Source: Gammaproteobacteria bacterium
GTDB lineage: Bacteria > Pseudomonadota > Gammaproteobacteria > UBA1113
Direction of reading: 5' to 3'
NCBI GenBank assembly: GCA_021156165.1
Contig: JAJNBM010000002.1
Span: 792 to 64,791, forward strand
Length of the DNA stretch: 64,000 nt
Of this stretch, positions 54,813-55,446 are shown piece by piece (position 1 is the first letter of the stretch; each line of letters begins with the position of its first letter). Under the pieces are notes generated by a model, which did no database searches, was not told the DNA's origin, and was given only the letters and a program-made list of their open reading frames with translations. Both the position numbers and the translations under genes were made by a program.

Positions 54813-55446
54813 TCATGTGCGCATCATTGCGGGACTCTGGCGCGGCAAACACATTACGGTCAGCGACAGTACGCTGGTACGACCAACCGGCGATAGGATC
54901 CGCGAAACGCTGTTCAATTGGCTGGGTAAAACCATTCATAAGGCGCACTGCCTCGATTTATTTTGCGGCAGCGGCATCTTAGGCTTAGAAGCTTTATCGC
55001 GCGGGGCAACAGAAGTCACTTTTGTAGACAGCAATGCCCAAGTGATTGCGCAATTAAAAAAAACCCTACAACAATTACCCGCCGCGCAAAGACCGCGCGT
55101 TTTAGTAGGGGTAGCCCCCAATGGCTGCCCTAATAGGGCGGGCACAGAGACCCACCCCTACGATACTCCTCAACCTACTAGCGCATACGTATTGCATCAA
55201 GATGGGTTAATACCCATTAAAAGCGATGCGTACGATATTATTTTCCTCGATCCACCTTTCAGTGGCGATCTGCTCACGCAATGTATGCCCTTATTAAAAC
55301 AATATGGCTACGAAAAAGTGGGGACTTTGATCTATATTGAAATAGCGGCAACAGAGATATTGACACTACCACAACATTGGCAGATCATAAAACAAGGTAA
55401 GGCGGGACATGTGCGCTATCATTTAATAGAGGTAACACAAGGATGA
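54805..55446 (+). CDS. rsmD: 16S rRNA (guanine966-N2)-methyltransferase RsmD, carrying an in-frame REP-element insertion
   Basis: …DLFCGSGILGLEALSRGA… and …DIIFLDPPF…. About 20 extra residues (…APNGCPNRAGTETHPYDTPQPTSAY…) are encoded by a REP copy at 55103-55164. Confidence 0.8.
   Translation: MDNHVRIIAGLWRGKHITVSDSTLVRPTGDRIRETLFNWLGKTIHKAHCLDLFCGSGILGLEALSRGATEVTFVDSNAQVIAQLKKTLQQLPAAQRPRVLVGVAPNGCPNRAGTETHPYDTPQPTSAYVLHQDGLIPIKSDAYDIIFLDPPFSGDLLTQCMPLLKQYGYEKVGTLIYIEIAATEILTLPQHWQIIKQGKAGHVRYHLIEVTQG
55103..55164. repeat. REP-like palindromic element, copy 5 (inside the rsmD coding sequence, in frame)
   Basis: GTAGGGGTAGCCCCCAATGGCTGCCCTAATAGGGCGGGCACAGAGACCCACCCCTACGAT. Confidence 0.75.

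Follow-up and report, generated by a model that had tools for sequence, protein, structure and literature searches.

A GTAG-type REP doublet translated in frame within a pre-existing loop of RsmD in a Legionellales-like metagenome-assembled genome

Elements of the REPIN/BIME type are thought to be mobilised by RAYTs (TnpA-REP), and the RPE families, found in Rickettsia, are about 100-150 bp long. More generally, REPs have been sorted into a GTAG and a CGTC superfamily, and intragenic members of both have been catalogued in many species (Di Nocera, De Gregorio & Rocco, 2013; PMC3733652). Intragenic GTAG REP dimers encode 20-30 amino acids, their hosts include RNA-modification enzymes, and intragenic REP inserts have been argued to sit in linkers or loops (PMC3733652). 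The RPEs of Rickettsia are in-frame palindromic repeats in functional proteins, which thereby gain an extra surface segment; RPE-4 and RPE-6 are of the CGTC type and RPE-1 is longer (PMC3733652). Both REP superfamilies are present in Coxiella burnetii, a member of the Legionellales (PMC3733652), where in addition the elements QMITE1 and QMITE2 overlap open reading frames and sometimes add in-frame residues (Wachter et al., 2018; PMC5896051). As to inheritance, a passage in a preprint describes REPIN/RAYT systems as vertically inherited (bioRxiv 10.1101/2021.07.10.451892), and some subclasses of TnpA-Y1 have a patchy distribution that resembles horizontal gene transfer (PMC6006769).

The case described here comes from a single 64-kb stretch of DNA, called the window throughout. 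We consider its source a Legionellales-like MAG, because the window contains a DotU/IcmF gene pair (28750-32957) and a Rab-like GTPase (18801-19700), and because the related locus L008 contains a SidE_PDE gene. The initial annotation, which proposed that a REP palindrome had been inserted in frame into rsmD, regarded such events as familiar from Rickettsia but, to its knowledge, not as a hallmark of Legionellales. In view of the REP superfamilies (PMC3733652) and in-frame QMITEs (PMC5896051) of C. burnetii, the present case is not the first for this order.

The REP doublet in rsmD and its family in the window

The rsmD coding sequence (54805-55446, forward strand) encodes a protein of 213 amino acids that belongs to the 16S rRNA m2G966 methyltransferase family according to its open reading frame, its Pfam match and its matches in the PDB. 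It matches PF03602 above the gathering score (1.2e-46; 159 bits, with the cut-off at 24), and 2ift and 2fpo with values of 2.6e-40 and 3.1e-34, in alignments that span query residues 4-96 and 137-209. Motif I (GSG, with G55 and G57) and D149-PPF152 are invariant across the RsmD alignments; catalytic motif IV (L148-DPPF152; 55246-55260, forward strand) is intact, and its columns are invariant in both alignments. In the region of interest, 41 window residues stand opposite 12-15 residues of the Escherichia coli and Haemophilus influenzae proteins, a surplus of about 26-29 amino acids, of which the REP contributes only 19 codons.

The REP doublet occupies 55105-55161 on the forward strand (57 nt; nhmmer, 56 bits, E=4.2e-16), with the sequence GTAGGGGTAGCCCCCAATGGCTGCCC-TAATA-GGGCGGGCACAGAGACCCACCCCTAC, and the family-conserved tail CGATA ends at 55165. 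As position 55105 lies 300 nt past the rsmD start, GTA is codon 101, and the element is read as GTA GGG ... CCC TAC, that is V101-Y119 (VGVAPNGCPNRAGTETHPY), with neither a stop codon nor a frameshift. On each strand the doublet has one stop-free frame, the others being closed because GTAG and the central CTAG supply TAG; rsmD uses the stop-free frame of the forward strand. The two central claims of the initial annotation, that a copy of a REP family is translated in frame within rsmD and that the PRVLV block and the DPPF motif flank this copy, are borne out. It gave the limits as 55103-55164, and what it described as one palindrome consists of two GTAG REPs in inverted orientation, a doublet.

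Unit 1 (55105-55130, forward strand) was delimited by family alignment and predicted DNA fold. It has the GTAG head (55105-55108) and a hairpin, GGGGTAGCC / CCCAAT / GGCTGCCC, whose 9-bp stem includes one G:T pair. Unit 2 (55136-55161, forward strand; pattern match at 55136-55159) is inverted, with GGGCGGGC / ACAGAGA / CCCACCCC followed by a CTAC tail, the complement of GTAG, at its outer end (55158-55161). Its stem has 7-8 bp with mismatches: relative to the family consensus, two mismatches weaken it, and one A:T to G:C change is compensatory. The GC content of the element is 0.65, as against 0.46 in the remainder of rsmD. At 12 of 62 columns the rsmD copy departs from the window consensus, and the other copies do so at 6-19, so that it is no more decayed than the intergenic copies.

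These data also bear on the trivial explanation, that the insert is an artefact of MAG assembly or marks rsmD as a freshly disrupted pseudogene. The source contig is indeed metagenome-assembled, and assemblers can stumble over repeats. However, the sequence of the rsmD copy is unique among the copies, the copy is far shorter than the reads or k-mer paths needed for a chimera, both of its flanks are colinear with rsmD orthologues, and the frame is open in a protein that AlphaFold2 models confidently outside the loop. We therefore consider this explanation exceedingly unlikely.

The family to which the doublet belongs is well represented in the window. A degenerate 24-nt core has five matches where 0.00 are expected, repeat clustering grouped seven copies, and an nhmmer profile built from these copies, all of them the window's own, found nine in 64 kb. 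The first unit follows the pattern GTAGGGGyAGCC-CCCnGT-GGCTGCCC, and after a spacer of 4-5 nt comes the inverted second unit, GGGCAGGC-ACGGGG-GCCTGCCCCTAC; the loops CCCnGT and ACGGGG are mutually reverse complementary, hence the two units are inverted. Imperfect, GC-rich palindromes of 20-40 bp that can fold into a stem-loop, a terminal GTAG (GT[AG]G) and dispersed, mainly extragenic copies are the features of the GTAG REP superfamily, and two inverted REP units with a short spacer are those of a REPIN or BIME. Judged by these sequence features, the element resembles a REPIN or BIME in being a doublet of inverted GTAG REPs, and we assign it to the GTAG superfamily as a whole rather than to any of its 24 numbered families (PMC3733652). 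The possibility that it is a MITE was rejected, since MITEs measure 70-300 bp, with terminal inverted repeats of 15-30 bp and target-site duplications, as against 57 nt here, and the rsmD junctions show no such duplication. Against Rfam, the window as a whole yielded a tmRNA only, with no curated RNA family over the REP, and a literature search with REP sequence strings returned only chance matches to primers.

Only one of the nine copies, that in rsmD, lies within a coding sequence; the other eight lie between genes or precede the true start codon. On the reverse strand, nhmmer detects an intergenic, degenerate copy at 2731-2775 and an intergenic copy at 8147-8204. On the forward strand it detects copies upstream of purA (9503-9565), in an intergenic region (36776-36831), between potC and a potD-like gene (38059-38119), in the intergenic region of the divergent ftsY and M16-peptidase genes (51981-52040), and in another intergenic region (56810-56870; E=8.6e-19), the last being nearest to the consensus; the remaining copy lies directly behind rsmD and is discussed below. 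The copies at 9503 and 51981 are located inside long open reading frames, but we rejected an intragenic status for them, as purA and ftsY start downstream of the REP. It was likewise rejected for the copy at 38059, which is most likely extragenic, as a TTG at 38044 gives the potD-like gene a canonical signal peptide.

The host loop, its structure and its orthologues

An AlphaFold2 model of the window RsmD, based on a 75-sequence alignment, has a mean pLDDT of 91 and a pTM of 0.88, and superposes on 2ift, 2fpo and 6m1c with target-normalised TM-scores (TMt) of 0.86-0.89. Residues 102-125 are modelled as coil with a pLDDT of 55-60, between strands 98-101 and 126-131. The strand on the N-terminal side of this loop is R98-V101 (RVLV; 55096-55107, forward strand); the one on the C-terminal side, S126-Q131 in the SAYVLHQ region (55180-55197, forward strand), is canonical according to model and alignment, and precedes the conserved D133. 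From the known topology of class I methyltransferases, the insert would be placed between helix B and strand 3, at the edge of the sheet, where the strand has its N-terminal end, and at a distance from the SAM pocket. The surface loop that the initial annotation had expected of a structural model appears there as a low-confidence coil between two strands, although the loop as such was there before the REP. As the window protein keeps fold and catalytic motifs in the model, it may well retain activity, and the insertion is probably harmless to the enzyme.

Among 4868 RsmD homologues, the REP insert was found only in the window's own protein (MCD6044964.1, encoded on a MAG contig of 64,999 bp), and it is specific to this lineage. 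The close relatives fall into a group of 200-209 amino acids, in which the extra segment at this site is shorter, and a group of 184-191 amino acids, from which it is absent. We compared the DNA of seven orthologous loci (L001, L002 and L004-L008), which together with the window make up a codon alignment of eight sequences. In L001, L005, L007 and L008 there is a loop of 15-22 codons with normal AT content, of the pattern LV(S/N)HPQKN..D.SQ..S.YVL and without similarity to the REP; the proteins P0004, P0005, P0007 and P0008 also have a loop of 15-22 amino acids without REP. The loop is absent from L004 and L006. L002 has the loop, and in it, after CAT CCC, a perfect single REP hairpin of 30 nt (GTAGGGGCAGCCCCCCGTGGCTGCCCCTAC) with a 12-bp stem, three codons further along than the REP of the window. 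Loop sequences differ in nearly every orthologue of the alignment. The initial annotation had weighed its insertion against the finding of REP-free orthologues with the same extra segment. That finding was made in part: the loop is there, but the REP itself is not. Similarly, its statement that the extra segment is encoded exactly by the REP applies to the 19 codons V101-Y119, but not to D120-A127 (DTPQPTSA; 55162-55185, forward strand), which in the codon alignment is homologous to D-ISQSAS-A of L001 and is what remains of the older loop.

Trees were computed from the M16 peptidase, RpiA and loop-stripped RsmD. They agree in the main groupings, with L008 as outgroup, then L007, and a crown of ((L002,L006),((window,L001),L005)), and differ in the placement of L004. 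Because the outgroups L008 and L007 have the loop, and L004 and L006 have lost it, the loop is old and dispensable; it is ancestral to the clade, with independent losses in L004 and L006. The REPs of the window and of L002 are best read as independent events, because each has REP-free sisters, their first codons differ, and the window has a doublet but L002 a singlet. Outside the loop, L001 and the window are 91.4% identical at the nucleotide level (83% at third positions), and the REP is absent from L001. On this comparison the REP insertion appears recent and specific to the window lineage.

The insertion was not a clean one. Relative to L001, the nearest orthologue, the window has gained 12 codons net, so that the figure of about 20 extra residues in the initial annotation exceeds this gain. 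An element of 57 nt has therefore added 36 nt, which implies either the loss of about 18 nt from the old loop or a blurring of the borders by microhomology. On one reading, 18 nt (AGT CAT CCG CAA AAA AAT) may have been replaced between the microhomologies GTR and GAYA; on the other, 42 nt would have entered ahead of the ancestral (S/T)HP. A simple insertion with target duplication was also considered, but does not fit the junctions.

It could be argued that the loop of the whole clade was made by an ancient REP insertion, so that the REPs of the window and L002 are survivors, or have been refreshed by gene conversion, and the REP-free loops are decayed remains. Two REP-bearing lineages do share the one loop, and its hypervariability is what would be expected of a former insert. 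Moreover, L002 and the REP-free L005 are both 202 amino acids long, with the palindrome exactly on 11 loop codons, and have a GCAGCC hexamer in common, albeit one codon out of register. Nevertheless, we consider an ancient REP origin quite unlikely. The loops of L001, L005, L007 and L008 have no similarity to the REP at E<=10 (nhmmer --max, which gave no hit at all in L001, L007 or L008), and their GC content of 0.47 is ordinary. Great age is at odds with the perfect palindrome of L002 and with a window copy that has decayed no further than the intergenic ones, and the differences in start codon and form, together with the REP-free sisters of both REP-bearing lineages, speak for separate arrivals.

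The REP-coded peptide could also have undergone exaptation into a functional loop on the RsmD surface that makes, for instance, a new contact to the 30S subunit or to a partner protein. The open frame and the position at the protein surface are compatible with this idea, and deviations from the REP consensus in the right arm restore a T-H-P tripeptide that resembles the ancestral S-H-P. Yet pLDDT is low and no structure is predicted in the insert, the host loop is hypervariable and, with two losses, dispensable, the insert is known from one contig, and the peptide is what the REP family encodes in that frame elsewhere. Exaptation is in our opinion very improbable.

We regard it instead as quite probable that the insert is a REP doublet that lies in frame in a permissive loop older than itself and is nearly neutral. 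In this model, a GTAG-type REP doublet would have entered rsmD after the split from the nearest sampled relative. It could have survived there for three reasons: the site is a clade-specific, hypervariable and dispensable beta-hairpin loop at the edge of the Rossmann sheet, translation proceeds in the single stop-free frame of the element, and the net change in length is divisible by three. The 19 REP codons would form the disordered tip of the loop and leave fold and catalytic motifs as they were, and because of this, we see the insert as a passenger that has been filtered by selection and is likely to be close to neutral, rather than as a new functional module.

A second doublet downstream and the REP in other genomes

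A second REP doublet, in the same orientation as the rsmD copy, lies between rsmD and rpiA (55451-55510, forward strand; nhmmer, E=7e-16). It is contained in an insert of about 105 nt (55447-55551), which splits the ATGA stop-start overlap of the two genes and supplies a GAGGAA Shine-Dalgarno sequence before the rpiA ATG at 55552. Junction comparison found the ATGA overlap intact in all seven relatives. The second hairpin of this copy, together with a T-run, is terminator-like. Young insertions of one and the same REP family thus stand on both sides of the 3' half of rsmD.

The operon order M16-M16-rsmD-rpiA-PTPS is common to the window and the seven relatives' loci, and the REP in rsmD might have been kept for a role as nucleic acid in this operon, as a hairpin in mRNA stability or processing, as a transcriptional pause, or as a site for gyrase or a nucleoid protein, with the change to the protein being incidental. 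REPs have been reported as RNA elements (PMC3733652), and the REP region of rsmD is predicted to fold better than shuffled sequence (-15.9 kcal/mol, z=-2.4). The terminator-like copy 290 nt downstream, which uncouples the ancestral ATGA overlap, points in the same direction. However, a T-run is missing from the intragenic copy and its second stem is weakened, the same operon is found in the relatives with neither copy, and the data fit the mere presence of the element equally. A selected role of this kind is, in our assessment, distinctly improbable.

A search of species-representative genomes located the right-hand REP unit (GGGCAGGCACRGRGNCCTGCCCCTA) in at least 120 stretches. Planctomycetota, Chloroflexota, Acidobacteriota, Nitrospirota, Binatia and several "delta" groups are among the more than 15 phyla represented in the matches listed; two of the contigs listed belong to relatives of the window, and 23 of the 132 matches listed have the same doublet architecture. 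RAYT-like genes lie beside the same REP in seven loci among the matches listed (L026, L038, L056, L075, L080, L103 and L123). They match PF01797 above the cut-off (33 bits) and NF047646 below it (65 bits, cut-off 80), and the best NCBIfam match of all seven is REP_Tyr_transpos, below cut-off. In at least six of the seven, the RAYT-like gene itself contains the REP in frame, directly after the HUH motif. We also observed the same REP in translated form in L066, within the adenylation domain of an NRPS, and in L046, within a disulfide oxidoreductase-rhodanese protein. From the in-frame copies in NRPS, oxidoreductase and RAYT-like proteins, it follows that in-frame tolerance is general to this REP family.

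By analogy to known GTAG REPs (PMC3733652; PMC6006769), the rsmD doublet would have been mobilised by a RAYT, a REP-associated tyrosine transposase. Pfam searches of the window's unassigned ORFs and tblastn searches of the window and the L001-L008 loci with RAYT-like proteins found no RAYT. A bolder reading combines a local and a global proposal: the edge loop of RsmD would be a recurrent landing pad for REPs, which serve as raw material for building and remodelling it, and a single REP/RAYT system would have spread over more than 15 phyla, tolerated within proteins, its own transposase included, thanks to its single stop-free frame. The landing pad is suggested by the doublet in the window, the singlet in L002 and the two complete losses of the loop. 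Taken as a whole, we consider this bolder reading unlikely.

Significance and comparison with described systems

In-frame REP events have already been documented, and the rsmD insert changes neither what is known about RsmD nor REP biology. It does, however, provide a clean case, backed by orthologues, of a mobile palindromic repeat that became coding sequence in a conserved housekeeping enzyme, for which the ancestral state and, in a sister lineage, an independent second event are both on record. As such it illustrates how selection may filter insertions into permissive loops. It also calls for caution in annotation, as repeats may be the source of additional G-, A-, P- and C-rich loops in MAG proteins. 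The identity of the REP across phyla is the more intriguing lead.

Among the described systems, the intragenic GTAG REPs (PMC3733652) come closest. The window element shares with them a short, GC-rich, GTAG-tagged stem-loop that is dispersed, mostly intergenic, often arranged in inverted pairs and occasionally found in frame. It differs in its host, an uncultured Legionellales-like MAG, and in its gene, rsmD, neither of which was catalogued there, and in being nested in a pre-existing, lineage-specific loop.

With REPINs and BIMEs, the element has in common two inverted REP units, a short spacer and a GTAG head, and RAYT-like Y1 transposase genes adjoin the same REP in 7 of the 120 listed loci, in other phyla. 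Unlike them, it is just 57 nt long, each of its units is a complete palindrome, and there is no RAYT in the window. The near-identical units in more than 15 phyla among the matches listed likewise set it apart from REPIN/RAYT systems.

The likeness to the RPEs of Rickettsia is one of outcome only, an in-frame palindrome that adds a surface segment. By description the elements differ, with 57 nt and a GTAG tag here as against the CGTC type of RPE-4 and RPE-6 and the greater length of RPE-1. Moreover, RPEs are frequent in coding regions in Rickettsia, whereas one of nine copies of the window family is intragenic. Finally, QMITE1 and QMITE2 resemble the window element in being small, non-autonomous repeats that contribute in-frame residues, here in a Legionellales-like host. 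They are, however, MITEs of 150-400 bp with direct repeats, whose main effect on functional genes is to change their 3' ends, while the window element is a REP doublet of 57 nt and is located centrally in a conserved enzyme.

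Palindromic inserts in rsmD and other coding sequences

The rsmD loop that carries the in-frame REP of the window also contains a REP in the sister MAG GCA_009885935.1, where a 30-nt perfect palindrome was found (L002, 9780-9809; also L003, 3158-3187). This palindrome fills exactly 11 codons, so that RsmD of L002, with 202 aa, has the same length as REP-free orthologues. A different, GC-rich palindromic insert (ATCCCGCGGCTTGACCGCGGGAT..., translated as SSRGLTAGS...) is present in RsmD of other gammaproteobacterial MAGs (P0086, encoded at L129 1981-2688, and P0046). It amounts to 40-50 aa and lies in the loop directly preceding the DPPF motif; the 8.7-kb locus L129 showed no further copy. 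At 55083-55103 of the window, immediately 5' of the intragenic REP, the sequence CGCGCAAAGACCGCGCG forms a small hairpin, and TTTTA comes next. This stretch codes for the conserved AAQRPRVL and occurs in relatives as well.

Single units of this REP family are also translated in other proteins. Among the loci from the scan of species-representative genomes, one is in frame within the AMP-binding domain of an NRPS (L066, 2985-3016), and a pyridine-nucleotide disulfide oxidoreductase has another, likewise in frame, behind its rhodanese domain (L046, 352-403).

REP copies at gene junctions

Between rsmD and rpiA, an insert of about 105 nt (55447-55551), consisting of a REP doublet (55451-55510) and 41 nt, separates the ATGA stop-start overlap that is intact in all seven relatives. 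ATGA is found at either side of the insert, which supplies rpiA with a GAGGAA ribosome-binding site and also contains a terminator-like hairpin with a T-run.

Another REP (38059-38119) lies between the potC stop codon and a TTG at 38044 (region 38035-38140, minus strand). With this TTG as start, the potD-like binding protein has a canonical signal peptide. The other candidate start is an ATG further upstream, at 38140, which shares an ATGA overlap with the potC stop; translation from this ATG would run in frame through the REP (IGAGPRACPRGATTGGYPY).

Neighbouring repeats and genes

The window has further repeats. The REP at 36776-36831 is abutted by a MITE-like element (36840-37003, about 164 nt), whose 27-bp terminal inverted repeats are 93% complementary; a second copy, 88% similar and in inverted orientation, is located 15 kb from the first (~21590-21745). 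The two copies of a 59-nt direct repeat (9562-9620 and 56698-56756, 86% identity) are each close to a REP copy. On visual inspection, the copy at 9562-9620 seems to form one arm of a long hairpin that extends to ~9690, upstream of purA. An Rfam scan of the window gave no match for the repeat or this hairpin, the sole match being the tmRNA gene (18098-18479, plus strand; RF00023, 204 bits).

The window also encodes a eukaryote-like Ras/Rab-family GTPase (18801-19700, minus strand; PF00071, 4e-52) and a DotU/IcmF pair (28750-29781 and 29778-32957, both plus strand), both of which would fit a Legionellales-like, host-associated organism. A SidE_PDE-domain protein is encoded in the relative L008. 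A gene cluster at 56969-64000 encodes proteins that have pilin-like motifs, such as GFTLLEIL, at their N termini. The long inverted repeats that this cluster contains (58839-59002 with 63442-63605, and 60599-60736 with 61622-61759) suggest paralogues in divergent orientation.

REP units and RAYT-like genes across phyla

The right-hand REP unit, GGGCAGGCACRGRGNCCTGCCCCTA, of which the window has the exact 25-mer at 38091-38115 and 56842-56866, was matched in a pattern scan of species-representative genomes by at least 120 genome stretches (L009-L128), and the record titles of the listed stretches name more than 15 phyla. The two-unit architecture of the window copies was found in 23 of the 132 REP matches, among the matches listed.

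Also among the matches listed, genes for RAYT-like Y1 transposases adjoin REPs of this family at seven loci in other phyla: L080 (2604-3398, minus), L103 (4584-5285, plus), L123 (4794-5384, minus), L056 (6357-7058, plus), L038 (7275-8000, plus), L026 (5310-5834, plus) and L075 (~696-935). They match PF01797, and their top NCBIfam match is REP_Tyr_transpos, under the cut-off. In the six sequences read, that is, all but L075, a REP (VGAGPRACP...) is in frame directly after the HUH motif, and some RAYT-like genes have extended peptide repeats derived from REP. Near-identical REP units in so many phyla are unexpected for REP/RAYT systems, for which vertical inheritance has been described (bioRxiv 10.1101/2021.07.10.451892).
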